Origin: a phage
Strand: one strand, 5' to 3'
Length of the DNA: 64,000 nt
Sequence record: PZ452584.1
Shown here: positions 12,139 through 43,897 of the stretch, piece by piece
How positions within the stretch are numbered: the stretch's first letter is position 1
Layout: each line of letters opens with the position of its first letter
Translations under genes and position numbers: made by a program
The notes under the pieces: model-generated
The model's database searches: none
Told to the model about the DNA's origin: nothing
Seen by the model: only the letters and a program-made list of their open reading frames with translations

Positions 12139-12188
12139 TTAATATCCTCTTTGTTTTGGTTTATTTTACCAAAAATTTATAAAGCAAT

Positions 12189-15915: not shown

Positions 15916-16386
15916 TTAATCATGTTTCCACACCCCATCGGTATTTGACCAAAGTCGCTGATTATCTGATCCTCGCCACAGCTTTTTGGTCGGAAGATTT
16001 TTCTCATACTTCCCATCAATAATAACATCAACATATTTAAGCATTTCTAGTTGTTTAATATCTTCAAACTTATATCCTGTCCACAACCAAATGCTTTTAT
16101 TGGGATAAAGATTTTTTACTGTTTGAACAATGCAATGAATAACATCTCGATTGTCAGGATAAAGAGGGTCACCTCCGGTTATAGTTAATCCTTCTATATA
16201 ATCATTATTCAAACATTCAATTAATTGTTCTAGTGTTTCACCAGTGAATGGAATACCATTTCTAGCATTCCATGTTGATTTATTATAACACCCTTCGCAT
16301 TTATGCAAACAACCTGTAACGAAAAGAACTGTCCTGCATCCAGGACCATTAACAAAGCAGCACGGGTATATTCTGTCATAATTCAT
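15916..16386 (-). CDS. nrdG: anaerobic ribonucleotide reductase activase NrdG (radical SAM)
   Basis: 156 aa; CLHKCEGC radical-SAM cysteine motif; follows nrdD. Confidence 0.9.
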   Translation of the reverse strand: MNYDRIYPCCFVNGPGCRTVLFVTGCLHKCEGCYNKSTWNARNGIPFTGETLEQLIECLNNDYIEGLTITGGDPLYPDNRDVIHCIVQTVKNLYPNKSIWLWTGYKFEDIKQLEMLKYVDVIIDGKYEKNLPTKKLWRGSDNQRLWSNTDGVWKHD

Positions 16387-17215
16387 TTATATATTTCCAA
16401 TTATAGCCTTCAACACTTTTACGTTCGCCATTTAAACATTTTAAAATATTTCCTTTGCTAGAAATATTAAAATATTTTGCTGCGTCTGGTATATAATTAA
16501 ATGTTTTTAAAAGAACACCATCTTTATATGCGCCAAATAAATTAAGAGTATATTTTTCTCGAAGACGCTGATGTTTCCTTTTCATAACCTCAGGATTTGC
16601 ATACGCCAACTTCAATGAATTTCTGTGTTTTTCTTTTACTTCAGGTTTTTGCATTGCTAACTTAGTTAGCCTGGAAATTTTATTTCTAACTTCGTCAGTT
16701 TTCATTGCATTTGACAAATTTAATAAAGTTTTATTTCTAACTTCAGGTTTTTGCATTGCTAACTTAGTTAGTTCTCTATGTCTTTTTCTAAAATCGTCAT
16801 CCTTCCATATATTTTTCGATAATTTTGACATAGAGCGGTGAAATAATTCCTTTTCACTGGAATACAATTTAAAAATTTCATCCAATTCATCCGCATTAAA
16901 TCTATCGGTATTCGAGTTTATCATTCTATGAAAGGCATAACACATTTTACTATTGCTTGTTTTAGCTAAATAGTAATGAGCTAACGCATGGTCATAATAT
17001 GACAAATTAACAATATTCCATTTATCTGTTTTATATTCAGGAAATATAGATTTGGGAAGCACGTGATGTGCTTCCGTTTTTCCTTTTATTTTAGGATTAT
17101 TATAATTTTTTGTTATCAAATCAACATATGACAATAGTAAATCATTATTTTCTTCAAATATTAAAGCTAATTTATCATTCACAAAATCGCAAGGATAAAA
17201 TCTATCATAATTCAT
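16376..17215 (-). mobile_element. mobC: HNH homing endonuclease (MobC-like) inserted between nrdD and nrdG
   Basis: 279 aa with KTEAHHVLPKSIFPEY...NLSYYDHALAH HNH core; first 14 codons MNYDRFYPCDFVND copy the nrdG N-terminus; start overlaps nrdD stop (ATGA), stop overlaps nrdG start. Confidence 0.8.
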
Positions 17216-19029
17216 TGGTGTTTAACCCTATGCATGATTTCTTTATTTTTACCGAGATTAAATCCGCGTTCGTTCGGGTTTCCAAGATATCCGCATGTTC
17301 TTCTTATTGTATTCATCTTTTTAGGATCAGTTTCTCCACAAATAGAACAAACAAATCCGTTTTCAGTAGGAGTCATTTCATGGGTACTTCCACATGTAAA
17401 ACATTTATCTACTGGCATATTAACACCAAAATAATCTAAATGTTGTGCAGCATAATCCCATACGGCCTCAAGGCCTTTTAGGTTATTTTTCATATCAGGA
17501 AGTTCAACATAAGAAATGTGACCACCTGTCGCAATGAAATGATATGGTGCTTCACGAGAAATTTTTTCAAACGGAGTAATATTTTCTTCTACTGAAACGT
17601 GGAAACTGTTAGTGTACCATCCTTTATCAGTAACATCCTTTACACTTCCATATTTTTCGGTATCGAGTTTACAGAAGCGATAACAAAGGTTTTCAGCAGG
17701 AGTAGAATACAAACTAAAAGCAAATCCGGTTCTTTCAGTCCACTGTTTAAGATGGGCATTCATTTTAGTTAAAATTTCTTGTCCAATATCACGACCGGCA
17801 AGAATATTCAATTCGTGAATACCAATGTATCCTAGAGACACTGAACTTCTACCGTTTTTAAATAACTCAATTATGTCGTCATCAGGTTTAAGACGAACCC
17901 CGAATGCACCTTCTTGGTAAAGAATAGGAGCAACAGTAGCTTTAACTCCTTTTAAGGAACTAATTCTACACATCAAGGCTTCAAAACATAAATCCATTCG
18001 TTCATTGAACAATTCGATAAATTTCTGTTCATTGAACTGTGTTCCAATATAAGAATCTAACGCAATACGAGGAAGATTCAGTGTTACAACACCGAGATTA
18101 TTACGTCCATCAAGAATTTCATTGCCAGTCGAATCTTTCCATACGCTCAAGAAACTACGACAACCCATTGGAGAAACAGGAATAGATGAGCCGGTGATAG
18201 CTTTATTGTTCTTAGCTGAAATAATATCAGGATACATTCTTTTGCTTGCGCACTCTAGAGCAAGCTGTTTAATATCATAGTTCGGATCGTCTTTATAAAG
18301 ATTAACACCTTCTTCAACGAACATAACAAGCTTAGGGAAAATAGGAGTTATCCCATCACGACCGAGACCTTTAATACGATTTTTCAGAATTGCTTTCTGA
18401 ATCATTCGTTCAGTCCAGTCAGTTCCTGTACCAAATGTAATTGTTACAAAAGGTGTTTGTCCGTTTGAACTAAAGAGAGTATTTACTTCATATTCATAAG
18501 CTTGGAATGCATCGTATACGTCTTTTTCTGTTTTAGATTGGGCATAATTCAGTGCATCGGCGATTTGCCATTTTTCTGCGTCCTCGATATGTTTTGCATA
18601 GGTGCGTTTAACATAAGGAGAAAGTACTTTATCTACATTCGCAAAAGTCGTTCCGCCGTATTGGTGAGAAGCAACCTGTGCGGTAATTTGTGCCATAATT
18701 GCAGTAGCAACGCCAATTGATTTAGGAGTTTCAATCTGCGCATTACCAAGCTTAAATCCGTTCTCAAGCATTCCTTTTAAATCTACTAAACAGCAATTAG
18801 TAAATGGAAGAGCAGGGGAATAATCAATATCATGAAAATGAATAATTCCGCTTTCATGCGCTTTCATAATAAAAGACGGGACCATATTTTTGGCAATGTG
18901 TTTAGACACAATACCAGCCATAAGGTCCCGTTGAGTTGGAAAAACACGAGAATCTTTGTTAGCATTCTCGTTTAAAAGGTCTTTATTAGTTTTATGAATC
19001 AATCCTTCAATTTCTTTTTCAATTGTCAT
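17212..19029 (-). CDS. nrdD: anaerobic ribonucleotide reductase NrdD (glycyl radical enzyme), uninterrupted
   Basis: 605-aa continuous ORF ending with glycyl-radical motif RRTCGYLG and C-terminal Cys cluster; no intron in this phage. Confidence 0.95.
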   Translation of the reverse strand: MTIEKEIEGLIHKTNKDLLNENANKDSRVFPTQRDLMAGIVSKHIAKNMVPSFIMKAHESGIIHFHDIDYSPALPFTNCCLVDLKGMLENGFKLGNAQIETPKSIGVATAIMAQITAQVASHQYGGTTFANVDKVLSPYVKRTYAKHIEDAEKWQIADALNYAQSKTEKDVYDAFQAYEYEVNTLFSSNGQTPFVTITFGTGTDWTERMIQKAILKNRIKGLGRDGITPIFPKLVMFVEEGVNLYKDDPNYDIKQLALECASKRMYPDIISAKNNKAITGSSIPVSPMGCRSFLSVWKDSTGNEILDGRNNLGVVTLNLPRIALDSYIGTQFNEQKFIELFNERMDLCFEALMCRISSLKGVKATVAPILYQEGAFGVRLKPDDDIIELFKNGRSSVSLGYIGIHELNILAGRDIGQEILTKMNAHLKQWTERTGFAFSLYSTPAENLCYRFCKLDTEKYGSVKDVTDKGWYTNSFHVSVEENITPFEKISREAPYHFIATGGHISYVELPDMKNNLKGLEAVWDYAAQHLDYFGVNMPVDKCFTCGSTHEMTPTENGFVCSICGETDPKKMNTIRRTCGYLGNPNERGFNLGKNKEIMHRVKHQ

Positions 19030-26755: not shown

Positions 26756-27724
26756 TTATTTCAGAAGAGTAACCTCAGCGATTTCTTCCCAGCCGTTTTT
26801 GTCGGTCATAATAAAGTCAGCAAGATAAAGAGCAGTACGCAGTGAAACATTGCGTAAACGATTAACATTGACTTTCATCCATGATAATGCTTTATAAGTT
26901 TCTTCATCAGAAAGACCACGCTTTTGCATCATGTCGGTTGAAAGAATAACATCTTCAACCCTGACCATAATTTCTTCATTAGTGTGAACACCCAAATCCA
27001 AATAAACTGAGCGGGACACTAATGCTTGTAAATGTGGAGCAAGTTTAGTACCACGGTCTAATTCGCGGTCAATGTCAACGTTTGTGATAAAAACAATCGT
27101 TCCTTTAAATTCAAACTCACGCTCAATGCCTTTTTCTTCTAAGTAAGAAGATGCAGTGCTCCAGCAGACTTTACGGGTCTCTCCAGTGTCCAGAGCGGCT
27201 TTTAGAAGATTAAGAATATCCATATCAGAGAAAACATCCACATCATCAATCAAAAGGACAGAATTCTCTTCACGATTATTCCAAAGCTGCTCATAAAGAC
27301 CGATACCGGAGATTTTACCGTTAATGCTTTTATATTCAATGTATCCATTATCATTTGCTTTATTTAAAGCTTTATCTAAAGAATACGTTTTACCAATACC
27401 CGCCGCACCAGAGATAATTAATGAACGAATGTTTCCGTTAATAATACCATTCGTCATCATTCCCATAACATTAAATCTTTTATTAATGCGGGTTTTCATA
27501 TCTTCATATGATTCTTTAACTTCTTCAACTTTTACACCATCATATGAAATGTCTGATTTGTAAACCCAAACACCGCGACGTTTACCGTCAATTTCAACAA
27601 AAACTTTACCATCTCCTTGTGCATCTACCGGAGCATTATCTGGGAACCATTCACCTAAGAGCTCAAAAGTTCCAGAGATTTCTTTACCAAAGTAGATACC
27701 CTTATTGATAGTTACAGTTTTCAT
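26756..27724 (-). CDS. AAA+/P-loop ATPase of unknown function
   Basis: Walker A GAAGIGKT, Walker B LLIDDVD, sensor-like LRNVSLRTALYLAD; start at ATG 27722-27724 (SD GGAG). Confidence 0.55.
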   Translation of the reverse strand: MKTVTINKGIYFGKEISGTFELLGEWFPDNAPVDAQGDGKVFVEIDGKRRGVWVYKSDISYDGVKVEEVKESYEDMKTRINKRFNVMGMMTNGIINGNIRSLIISGAAGIGKTYSLDKALNKANDNGYIEYKSINGKISGIGLYEQLWNNREENSVLLIDDVDVFSDMDILNLLKAALDTGETRKVCWSTASSYLEEKGIEREFEFKGTIVFITNVDIDRELDRGTKLAPHLQALVSRSVYLDLGVHTNEEIMVRVEDVILSTDMMQKRGLSDEETYKALSWMKVNVNRLRNVSLRTALYLADFIMTDKNGWEEIAEVTLLK

Positions 27725-27758
27725 TTTATTCTCCAAATCCGTATCAGTTGATAGTTGT

Positions 27759-27788
27759 ATAGTACCATAAAGCTTTATGCTTGTAAAC
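27759..27788 (-). promoter_or_regulatory. sigma70-type early promoter with conserved leader block
   Basis: GTTTAC-N18-TACTAT-ACAACTATCAAC. Confidence 0.5.
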
Positions 27789-27818
27789 AGTTTTGTGAAA
27801 AAATTTTTGAAATAAAAA

Positions 27819-27838
27819 GGGGGACCTCTAGGGCCCCC
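27819..27838 (-). terminator. GC-rich hairpin
   Basis: GGGGGCCC-uaga-GGUCCCCC with flanking A/U runs. Confidence 0.45.
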
Positions 27839-36252: not shown

Positions 36253-36531
36253 TTATTCTTTAAATCTGATCAATTTATTCATAGACTTTGAAACTTCTGC
36301 ACGAACCTCATGTAGATTTTTGAGCTGTTCAAGACGCTGCGCATAGTAAGCAATTTCATCTTCTTCGAGACAGTCCTGCGAATCTTCTTTAAGATAGCGT
36401 GCATAATCCTGGAAAGCATTACGAATTACTTCTTGGAAGTCATCAAGACTTTGAATTTTCTTAGGAGCGGCAGATACACGACGAGGTGCAGTATAATACT
36501 CATAACCAAACCCTGCGCTTAATTGAGCCAT
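36253..36531 (-). CDS. hypothetical protein
   Basis: 92 aa from ATG 36529-36531; TAATG overlap with upstream gene. Confidence 0.4.
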
Positions 36532-36797
36532 TAGTATTTTTCCTCTGGTTGGAACACAGCACGGCAAGCCCACATACTTGCTTCTTTGAGTTTCGTTTTA
36601 GCAATAGTTAACTGATCGAGGCTTTCGGCGTAATTCTTCGCGAGTTCATCATCTTCACAGCTATCAAATGCTTCCCAAAATTCATTGTATAAAGCATCAA
36701 AGATAAGTCCTAAACGAACTTCAGCGTCTTTAATAGCATTTACTTTACCGATTTTTTCGTCGGTATGTGGCTTATAACCTTTAATATCTTCAATCAT
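36531..36797 (-). CDS. hypothetical protein
   Basis: 88 aa from ATG 36795-36797 (SD GAGGAA). Confidence 0.4.
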
Positions 36798-37011
36798 ATT
36801 TGACTTCCTCACCAGTACATAAATCGTATTCAACTAAACGAATAGGTTCATGAATGCCATATCCCTGAACAGAAATTTCTGTAGTAGGATAAATTCCATT
36901 AATATCACCCATGTTCCATGCTTCGTTAAATTGCTGTTCGCCTGAATTACTAAACCATTCGGCAAAAGCATTTAGCACATCTTCAGAACCTTCAATAATT
37001 ATCTTTGCCAT
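36790..37011 (-). CDS. hypothetical protein
   Basis: 73 aa; ATG overlaps stop of GrcA-like C-terminal frame (TAATG). Confidence 0.4.
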   Translation of the reverse strand: MAKIIIEGSEDVLNAFAEWFSNSGEQQFNEAWNMGDINGIYPTTEISVQGYGIHEPIRLVEYDLCTGEEVKYD

Positions 37012-37372
37012 TACAAACTTTCAGTAAAGGTACGAGCGATAACGTCGCGCTGCTGTTCCGGAGTCAGAGAGTTAAAGCGAACTGCATAACCGGATACACG
37101 GATGGTCAGCTGCGGATATTTTTCCGGATGCTTAACTGCATCTTCCAGAGTTTCACGACGCAGAACGTTAACGTTCAGGTGTTGACCACCTTCAATTTTA
37201 ACTGTAGGCTGTGGCTCAATTTCAATTTCACGGGCATGCAAACCATAGAAAATTTCCGGGTCTACAAAAGAGTCCTCTTTAAAGGTTTAGAAACGATAAT
37301 TCGTGCTTGAATACCATCTTCAAAATAAATAGTACCTTTATGTGTGCCTTCAAGAATTTGATATGCTTTCAT
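37011..37372 (-). pseudogene. GrcA/YfiD-like glycyl-radical cofactor gene interrupted by an apparent 1-nt frameshift
   Basis: C-terminal frame (37286-37011) encodes ...[72 protein letters not shown], near-identical to E. coli GrcA C-terminus; N-terminal frame (ATG 37370-37372, [30 protein letters not shown]...) stops at TAG 37262-37264; frames join if one base is added in TTTAAA run at 37278-37283. Confidence 0.7.
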
Positions 37373-37379
37373 ATAAACC

Positions 37380-37760
37380 TCAATTAGAAAATAAATTTAT
37401 CCAAGATTGTTCTTTAATTAAAAATGGCTCAGAATCATATGCCATTAAACTTTGCGTAATTAATCCTTTAAAAGGTCCATCAATAAATTCCATGGTAAAA
37501 TATGGAATTTTATTCATTAGCCGTGCATTAGGAGCAGTGCACAAAACTCTGCATCCTTTGAATACGCCTTTTTGTAATTTGTATTGCTTGGGATAAAATT
37601 CGCTTAAAATGTTGTTATTTGCCAAAATTTCAAAATGATTCACCAATTTATTTTTAATAGTTTTTGGCGAAAAATAAAGATATTCGAAAAGCTGAGTGTC
37701 TGTCATCATTGCATTCCGATTACGAAAAACTGTGGACGAGTAATACCACCAATGCAACAT
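37380..37760 (-). CDS. hypothetical protein
   Basis: 126-aa ORF; overlaps upstream ORF by 55 nt in different frame. Confidence 0.35.
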
Positions 37761-40822: not shown

Positions 40823-41292
40823 TCAGTGATAAAGTTATTTAAATTTTGAGCATATTTCTTTTCATCAAAAATCTTTTGCTGTCTGCGTAAACGCCATGGC
40901 ATTTCAATGAACATACGCCATATTCCTGATAATACTGCTGCTGTAAAAATATTAACAAGTATAGTTAAAAGAATCCAATCGCCTATTCTGTCCATTGGAT
41001 TTTTTATAAAAAAGTAAAATACGAATGATGATATAGGAAGACTAATGATATACCACAGAAGAACCTTCTTATCTGTGAACCAATCAGCATTTGTTAACTT
41101 AGCGCGACCATTTTGAATACACACGAATTTATCATCTGTTACAGTAAATGGCTTAGCTGCTTGATATCCCATTCTAAACTCCCTAATTAATCGTTTCTTT
41201 GTATCTTCGGAACAACCATTCCAGTCAACTCTATCAACTGAAATGCCATCATCCCCATCATCTAAATCATACCAGCGAGTTTTTAAAATCAT
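40804..41292 (-). CDS. small membrane protein, tandem-array member 4
   Basis: 162 aa, 2 TM helices, C-terminal FITECRKLK; ATGA start/stop overlaps. Confidence 0.5.
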
Positions 41293-43526: not shown

Positions 43527-43790
43527 TTATTTCATATTATTGAAATATTCTTCTGCGATTTCATCGTTATCATGGTAAACTTTAGAAGACAGTTTAACAT
43601 AACCTTCAGCAGTGAACATGTTAATCACAACCTTTACAGTATACCACTGACCGTCTTCATTACCCATTACTGCGTAAGTTTCAAACATCGGATGATCAGG
43701 ACCGATAACTTTAATATCATTCACTGTACGACCAAAATCTTCTGAAACACATTTCATAAAGAAGTTGAACAGTTCGCCGTAATTATCCAT
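43527..43790 (-). CDS. hypothetical protein
   Basis: 87 aa from ATG 43788-43790 (SD GGAG). Confidence 0.4.
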   Translation of the reverse strand: MDNYGELFNFFMKCVSEDFGRTVNDIKVIGPDHPMFETYAVMGNEDGQWYTVKVVINMFTAEGYVKLSSKVYHDNDEIAEEYFNNMK

Positions 43791-43833
43791 TTCATTCTCC
43801 AAGTTGTTTTCTGTATCAGTAGTTGATAGTTGT

Positions 43834-43863
43834 ATAGTACCATGGAAGAACAGGGATGTAAAC
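43834..43863 (-). promoter_or_regulatory. sigma70-type early promoter with conserved leader block
   Basis: GTTTAC-N18-TACTAT-ACAACTATCAAC with 11-nt A-tract upstream. Confidence 0.5.
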
Positions 43864-43897
43864 AGTTTTGTGAAAAAAAAAAATTTTTAAAGGTTTT

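Follow-up and report, generated by a model that had tools for sequence, protein, structure and literature searches.

A one-base deletion splits vs.6, the GrcA-type glycyl-radical spare-part gene of a T4-type phage

Y06I of phage T4 and YfiD (GrcA) of Escherichia coli are cited as the two spare-part proteins that have been validated experimentally (Wagner et al. 2001, as cited in PMC8683613). According to the same account, the pyruvate formate-lyase (PFL)-activating enzyme radicalises Y06I and YfiD, and oxygen-cleaved PFL regains activity; G734 of PFL is named there as the radical site (PMC8683613). Nolan et al. 2006 (PMC1524935) compared six T4-like genomes and found the T4 gene for Y06I, vs.6, conserved in each of them, a retention that argues for its usefulness in nature. 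Sequence homologous to vs.6 is found in about 1500 phage records, including those of T5-like and Klebsiella phages, and many GenBank records name the gene 'autonomous glycyl radical cofactor GrcA'.

The locus considered here lies in a 64,000-nt stretch of phage DNA (PZ452584.1; hereafter the window). The phage is T4-type (Tequatrovirus) and its DNA is colinear with that of T4T, with 95-98% identity in most conserved blocks and less in a few divergent ones. At the vs.6 locus the nucleotide identity to T4 is 98%, synteny is kept from vs.8 through regB, and the gene order around the split gene is denV, vs.8, vs.7, vs.6, vs.5, vs.4, vs.3 and regB. The features of the locus, all on the minus strand, are as follows.

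37380-37709, minus strand: vs.7, the upstream neighbour, 109 aa from its MMTDTQ start.
37378-37381, minus strand: Shine-Dalgarno-like GAGG, 5′ of the vs.6 ATG, overlapping the vs.7 stop TGA (37382-37380).
37262-37372, minus strand: 5′ fragment of vs.6; residues 1-29 are those of T4 Vs.6 and the last seven codons are out of frame (PLKRTLL).
37286-37288, minus strand: the lesion, a run of three A (A3; A4 in relatives) in TCTAAA(A)CC, a single alignment gap.
37277-37283, minus strand: T_TTA_AAG heptamer, in the X_XXY_YYZ phase of the ATG frame in the mutant, six bases after the deletion.
37011-37286, minus strand: 3′ part of vs.6 in the -1 frame, 91 codons plus TAA (37013-37011), with the entire glycyl-radical domain.
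37011-37241, minus strand: longest ORF with a start codon in the GrcA frame, TTG start, 76 aa.
37018-37195, minus strand: 178-nt tract with 100% DNA identity to the 3′ end of E. coli grcA and sharp borders.
37089-37091, minus strand: codon of the radical glycine, G95 of Vs.6, in the motif RVSGYA, placed by alignment to GrcA and PFL.
36790-37011, minus strand: vs.5, the downstream neighbour, 73 aa, whose ATG overlaps the vs.6 stop (ATGA... TAATG arrangement).

A preliminary description, made from the letters of the window, had proposed a GrcA/YfiD-type gene split by a single-base frameshift, and on this central point it holds: the homology and the two frames are both verified. Read on the minus strand and in the ORF list, a 36-codon ORF runs from ATG 37372-37370 to TAG 37264-37262, which is where the N-terminal part had been placed, and phage 132 has a ribosome_binding_site annotated at the position equivalent to its GAGG. 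The 3′ frame, to which the glycyl-radical domain had been assigned, is open from 37286 to 37014, and its product begins TFKEDSF. This frame aligns to GrcA and matches PF01228 (Gly_radical) at 67.8 bits (cut-off 22.2); it carries the RVSGYA glycine motif, and its final 60 residues are identical to those of E. coli GrcA (PDB 6OWR), so the host-like C-terminus that had been described is exact. In the alignment, G95 of Vs.6 falls on PFL G734, and residues 1-57 of Vs.6 have no PFL counterpart.

With the frames rejoined, the repaired protein is identical to T4 Vs.6 at 120 of 120 residues, and is thus in sequence T4 Y06I, the protein with the reported PFL rescue; for the intact protein, the PFL rescue experiment that had been suggested was thereby answered already. 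It matches phrog_1209 end to end (207 bits, residues 1-120), and the gene takes the phrog_1209 place between vs.7 and vs.5. The top NCBIfam match of the repaired 120-aa protein is TIGR04365 (GrcA; IPR011140), at 150.5 bits; the equivalog cut-off of 170 is not reached, because the N-terminal half is phage-specific, and the 3′ part (37011-37286) by itself scores 148 bits. A GrcA gene is expected to be a single uninterrupted ORF of ~120-127 aa, and the relatives' vs.6 ORFs are intact at 363 nt; the window has a 36-codon ORF and a 91-codon frame instead. The 91-aa frame also scores below the cut-offs of the short families GrcA2 (NF008341; 93.7 bits, cut-off 145) and GrcA3 (NF038360; 107.1 bits, cut-off 158). 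On these sequence grounds, the split gene is an ortholog of T4 vs.6 (Y06I), a GrcA/YfiD-type spare-part gene.

Alignment to the intact vs.6 of T4T, a51 and phage 132 shows that one A is missing, where the window reads TCTAAACC and the relatives read TCTAAAACC; the k-mer pair TCTAAACCTTTAAAGAGG against TCTAAAACCTTTAAAGAGG distinguishes the alleles. The deletion creates a TAA (37289-37287) in the GrcA frame. With the A put back, the ORF has 363 nt and encodes T4 Vs.6, in agreement with the fused protein of ~120 aa that had been anticipated. The base had been sought in the TTTAAA run at 37278-37283, where an extra letter would indeed fuse the frames; that run, however, is identical in T4T, a51, phage 132 and the window, so that the proposed insertion would not restore the ancestral state, and the missing base belongs to the A run at 37286-37288. 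An alignment against the equivalent locus of T4-like relatives had been suggested as the check, and the relatives do carry the extra base, as A4.

A change in homopolymer length is the commonest class of consensus error, and the phage could truly have A4 and an intact vs.6, one A having been lost in base-calling or consensus building. Consistent with such an artefact, the allele is shared by no top-ranked GenBank relative, the remainder of vs.6 is flawless, and there are about ten further homopolymer-length differences between the window and T4T, six of them shorter in the window. Against it, the run is merely 3 or 4 bases long, and the other homopolymer differences lie almost entirely outside protein-coding sequence. 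In particular, most non-triplet indels in the blastn comparison with T4T are compensated pairs in divergent stretches, and of the isolated 1-nt indels in the aligned part of the 64 kb, none but that in vs.6 breaks a window gene. The remaining isolated homopolymer differences are intergenic or in the small-RNA/tRNA region, except one at 41004, where the window copy is intact. The window is ~90% coding DNA and contains 1258 A/T runs of at least 4 bases; the near-absence of homopolymer differences from so much coding sequence argues for natural polymorphism under selection rather than random error. The blastn indel list is the primary evidence on assembly quality, since the tblastn screen for split genes is too insensitive for a vs.6 fragment of 29 aa. 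Moreover, short-read-style assemblies of two other phages, made independently (contigs from ERR7569065 and SRR28171614), show exactly this deletion, which makes a private assembly error unlikely. The homopolymer indel in the assembly that the preliminary description listed among its explanations is therefore disfavoured, and we consider it unlikely that the phage has an intact gene.

Length differences of 1-4 bases from T4T are located at 12175, 14294, 22321, 27804, 28440, 32439, 43873, 48186 and 60919. All nine are intergenic, nearly all are in A/T runs, and several stand beside GGGAG/CCCG-type motifs at gene ends.

The A3 allele is rare. Of some 470-490 T4-type GenBank records, the top-ranked matches all have A4, and no phage record equals the window at every base of the site; in IMG/VR, where the exact 33-mer of the window is absent, four contigs match the intact 35-mer and none the deleted 34-mer; and all five JGI metagenome contigs that match the site carry the extra A. 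Its rarity follows from the A4 of the top-ranked GenBank matches and of all nine IMG/VR and JGI contigs. Further, the contigs read because they encode the same Vs.7 protein have a 120-aa vs.6 in 10 of 10 cases. The DenV protein of the window is itself without a recorded copy.

The exact 36-aa frameshift peptide occurs on two Logan contigs from independent runs, L008 (ERR7569065) and L009 (SRR28171614), which both carry TCTAAACC; the look-up was for the exact peptide, and only the identical lesion could be found in this way. Local identities to the window are 97.0% for L008 and 92.8% for L009, and those to the nearest GenBank record are 98.7% and 94.2%; the upstream genes of both contigs differ from those of the window, so they come from other phages. 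When the haplotypes of 25 sequences are tabulated, the three carriers of A3 (the window, L008 and L009) have no private SNP in common and differ among themselves at sites 3 and 6 nt from the run. Apart from the gap, L008 and L009 each match their own set of intact alleles perfectly. Between the window and the intact alleles closest to it there are two differences, the gap and a synonymous SNP (CCG for CCA) that is present in other intact alleles. The presence of the deletion on three haplotypes indicates that it arose more than once, or that it moved by very short recombination patches. Ten control peptides, predicted for frameshifts at the remaining five homopolymer runs of the gene and for a +1 insertion at the A run itself, mostly tested on one haplotype only, had no occurrence in a collection of 15 billion proteins. 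The recurrence at one site means that the allele may be other than a plain null. Another contig, L007, came up in a look-up of the 76-aa ORF and was rejected as a carrier: it has the intact A4, and its short gene call results from a Nextera adapter at the contig start.

Both L008 and L009 stop ~30 nt, or one k-mer, into the host-identical tract. Such ends fit a branch of the de Bruijn graph with the grcA of a co-sequenced host, and because the contigs end inside the tract, the 3′ half of vs.6 in those phages is unseen.

Other defective vs.6 alleles exist, which supports dispensability of the gene. A homologue search with the N-terminal 63 aa gave six clusters and served to find defective variants, not as a census. 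One protein, P0002, derives from a vs.6 with a C3-to-C2 frameshift. Three more, P0032, P0033 and P0035 (the last on a 169-kb ENA contig, L015), have in-frame deletions of 15-20 codons inside the radical domain, and P0035 lacks the RVSGYA glycine; these are either real defective alleles or assembly short-cuts through the host-identical tract. In OM632671.1 (L014, 193 kb; 468-2776), a T4-like phage, vs.7, vs.8 and codons 1-29 of vs.6 have given way to an ORF of 685 aa that matches no family, and what is left of vs.6 is a 91-aa glycyl-radical domain gene with a GTG start; its breakpoint, at TTAAAGAGGAC, is immediately beside the frameshift site of the window.

Under standard decoding, the window allele gives a peptide of 36 aa in which no domain is recognised, and it gives no radical domain. 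Past the deletion, the gene has no further lesion and each substitution leaves the GrcA-frame residue unchanged, which indicates a young allele and rules out a long-standing pseudogene. Of the three explanations first offered (assembly indel, decaying pseudogene and programmed frameshifting), the assembly indel is disfavoured and programmed frameshifting is unsupported; a recent inactivating or leaky mutation fits best. Overall, we infer a biological mutation rather than an error, and with it a loss or strong reduction of function. Our main reading, to which we assign a probability of roughly 0.6, is a genuine young A4-to-A3 deletion, recurrent or recombined, that has abolished or strongly reduced the function of a dispensable vs.6.

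The mechanism would be as follows. The intact gene is expected to make a 120-aa autonomous glycyl-radical cofactor, which would be radicalised by the host PFL-activating enzyme and would then substitute for the C-terminal radical domain of oxygen-cleaved host pyruvate formate-lyase. The change from A4 to A3 at 37286-37288 would shift the frame past codon 29, so that normal translation would stop after 36 codons and the radical domain would not be produced at normal levels. As vs.6 can be dispensed with, in aerated culture at least, the phage would tolerate the allele, and if small amounts of the full-length or 76-aa protein were made, they would be incidental.

The preliminary description also raised programmed frameshifting, and the sequence after the deletion does hold a slippery heptamer. 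It begins at offset 89 from the ATG (phase 2), and lies in the zero frame within the overlap of the two frames, an 8-codon window between the GrcA-frame TAA and the zero-frame TAG. A simulated -1 slip on the heptamer gives the 120-aa Vs.6 with two substitutions only, T30P and F31L. The class X_XXA_AAG is the most shift-prone heptamer class in E. coli (Sharma et al. 2014, PMC4066793), and in-phase copies are rare in the ORFs of the window (5 per 19,717 codon positions). Programmed -1 frameshifting is recognised by a stem-loop or pseudoknot 5-8 nt downstream or by an upstream SD-like sequence. Here the sole hairpin starts 10 nt downstream and has a minimum free energy of -12.5 kcal/mol against a shuffle mean of -13.8 kcal/mol (z = 0.44), there is no SD-like element in the sequence upstream of the heptamer, and Rfam has no match at the site. 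The two-frame arrangement is not conserved among relatives: neither the top-ranked matches among ~490 GenBank relatives nor any of the nine IMG/VR and JGI contigs matching the site show it, and the three carriers form no lineage. Moreover, the 36-aa zero-frame product is domainless. An evolved programmed frameshift, by which the gene would make two products under regulation, like dnaX or the tail-chaperone genes of phages, has the in-phase heptamer as the sole point in its favour; with neither conservation nor a stimulator found, we judge it extremely improbable. The heptamer encodes Phe-Lys in the intact vs.6, so it is not selected for slippage, and 59 of the 253 distinct 1-nt deletions in vs.6 would put it in the rescuing phase. 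Its occurrence at this place is an accident, not a signal. Transcriptional slippage is ruled out by the run of only 3 A.

A leaky allele that keeps function needs no evolved signal. A -1 slip on U_UUA_AAG would restore a nearly wild-type product, given that the phase and the rescue window are right, and reinitiation at UUG 37241 would yield the 76-aa radical domain. The latter start is 20 nt past the TAG of the 5′ fragment, and the predicted 76-aa ORF is a possible reinitiation product of a size close to GrcA2 and GrcA3. Several observations accord with residual function: A3 is found on three haplotypes as against none of the ten alternative frameshift peptides, short GrcA2/GrcA3 families of 78-80 aa exist, OM632671.1 has nothing but its 91-aa GTG-start domain, and residues 1-57 of Vs.6 are without a PFL counterpart. 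However, heptamers without stimulators are weak, reaching only 2-10 times a background of about 0.05% (PMC4066793); the hairpin is no better than shuffled sequence, and SD-like element and Rfam match are lacking, as above; the Phe-Lys codons, with the frequency of deletions that would phase them, account for the heptamer; and the ribosome-binding site of UUG 37241 is weak, with no usable Shine-Dalgarno sequence. Further, the comparison with the control peptides is between a carrier look-up blind to other lesions and peptides placed on one haplotype each. We therefore hold leaky retention of function to be improbable. The more specific proposal, that A3 is a recurring down-tuned form of GrcA, rescued by unprogrammed slippage or reinitiation and selected as a rescuable lesion, is quite doubtful; if true, residual function would account for the persistence or recurrence of one frameshift allele in wild phages. 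The recurrence of one deletion in independent wild phages, beside an in-phase shift-prone heptamer, provides a cheap natural test of the extent to which 'savior' frameshifting buffers indels.

Over 185 nt, the host-like tract has 98.9% identity to the best-matching E. coli genomes, and it is matched at 95-99% in 5426 of 5426 complete genomes, with identity dropping abruptly at both borders. Its GC content is 48%, that of the 5′ part of vs.6 is 35%, and that of the window is 34.5%. The preliminary description allowed for either recent capture from the host or strong constraint. Among the bacterial grcA matches listed, which do not include Klebsiella or Escherichia genes, those with proteins 92-97% identical over the stretch have only 77-89% nucleotide identity and 45-73% identity at third positions, and protein constraint cannot explain the identity of the tract for that reason. 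The comparison favours recent DNA exchange with an Escherichia host, and sets constraint aside. Over the last 192 nt, the identities to E. coli grcA are 183-186/192 for T4-type phages, 180/192 for Mosigvirus, 161/192 for a Klebsiella T4-like phage and 136/192 for T5, and the 5′ border of the tract is common to all T4-like alleles. The tract thus shows DNA passing, to this day, between T4-type phages and the chromosome of E. coli within an auxiliary metabolic gene, and is an example of ongoing phage-host gene conversion. It also breaks or mis-joins assemblies of samples that contain phage plus host.

In one bacterial contig (L106; JAODFN010000001.1, 489 kb), at 2516-2700, T4-like e, vs.8, vs.7 and vs.6 run into E. 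coli grcA-eamB-LysR, and the switch from phage to host falls exactly within the common tract. Either the assembly is chimeric or phage and host DNA have truly recombined here.

Elsewhere in the window, nrdD (17212-19029) and nrdG (15916-16386) are both present, as the preliminary description had stated. Rescue of NrdD by Vs.6 is unsupported: its domain is of the PFL/GrcA type, and PFL is the target on record. The window nrdD is a single 605-aa ORF, in which the ~1-kb group I intron of T4T with I-TevII is absent, and the gap between nrdG and nrdD (16376-17215) holds a 279-aa homing-endonuclease-like ORF (phrog_655), with a weak I-HmuI NUMOD-like match, in place of T4T mobC. Two intergenic stretches of ~100 nt, 27718-27821 and 43788-43878, are both 83-88% identical to one T4T intergenic segment downstream of gene 43 (L004, 1993-2101), and judging from these alignments they look like a short dispersed intergenic repeat. 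Within the vs cluster, the second gene after vs.6, the vs.4 ortholog (36531-36797, minus strand), scores 70.9 bits against the Acb2/Tad1 hairpin domain of Pfam; by this match, the cluster combines an anti-CBASS-type sponge with a metabolic spare part.

The finding itself is of little weight: non-essential accessory genes of T4-type phages have strain-specific lesions, and this is one more of them. A suitable annotation label is 'vs.6/grcA, frameshifted'. The gene and its system are already known; the window allele is a frameshifted variant and no new system. With T4 Vs.6/Y06I it shares the locus, the neighbours, the nucleotide identity of 98% and an identical repaired protein, whereas T4 and the other deposited relatives examined are intact and the window gene is split into 36 and 91 codons. 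With E. coli GrcA (YfiD) it shares the C-terminal 60 residues, the 178 nt of DNA and the RVSGYA motif, but GrcA has 127 aa and the phage protein 120 aa, and the N-terminal 57 residues of the latter are phage-specific and AT-rich. The minimal layout of the 76-aa ORF and the 91-aa frame, a short leader followed by EGGQHLNVN...RVSGYA, is that of GrcA2 and GrcA3 (78-80 aa); in contrast to these, the window frame scores below both family cut-offs, and the short ORF here is a predicted one. Like the X_XXA_AAG sites of dnaX, IS911/IS3 and lambda G-T (PMC4066793), the locus has U_UUA_AAG in the correct phase and then a short overlap window, but unlike them its heptamer comes with neither an SD-like or structural stimulator nor conservation. 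A parallel for the lesion is e.2, which is intact in the window as a 162-aa ORF (41292-40807, minus strand; phrog_2203) and annotated as e.2a/e.2b in T4T, which has one T fewer in a T run at 41004. The reference-type T4 strain thus has its own homopolymer frameshift in an accessory gene. As at vs.6, the gene is small and non-essential, and a homopolymer difference of one base has split it in one strain but not in the relatives; the roles, however, are reversed, with the window intact and T4T split.
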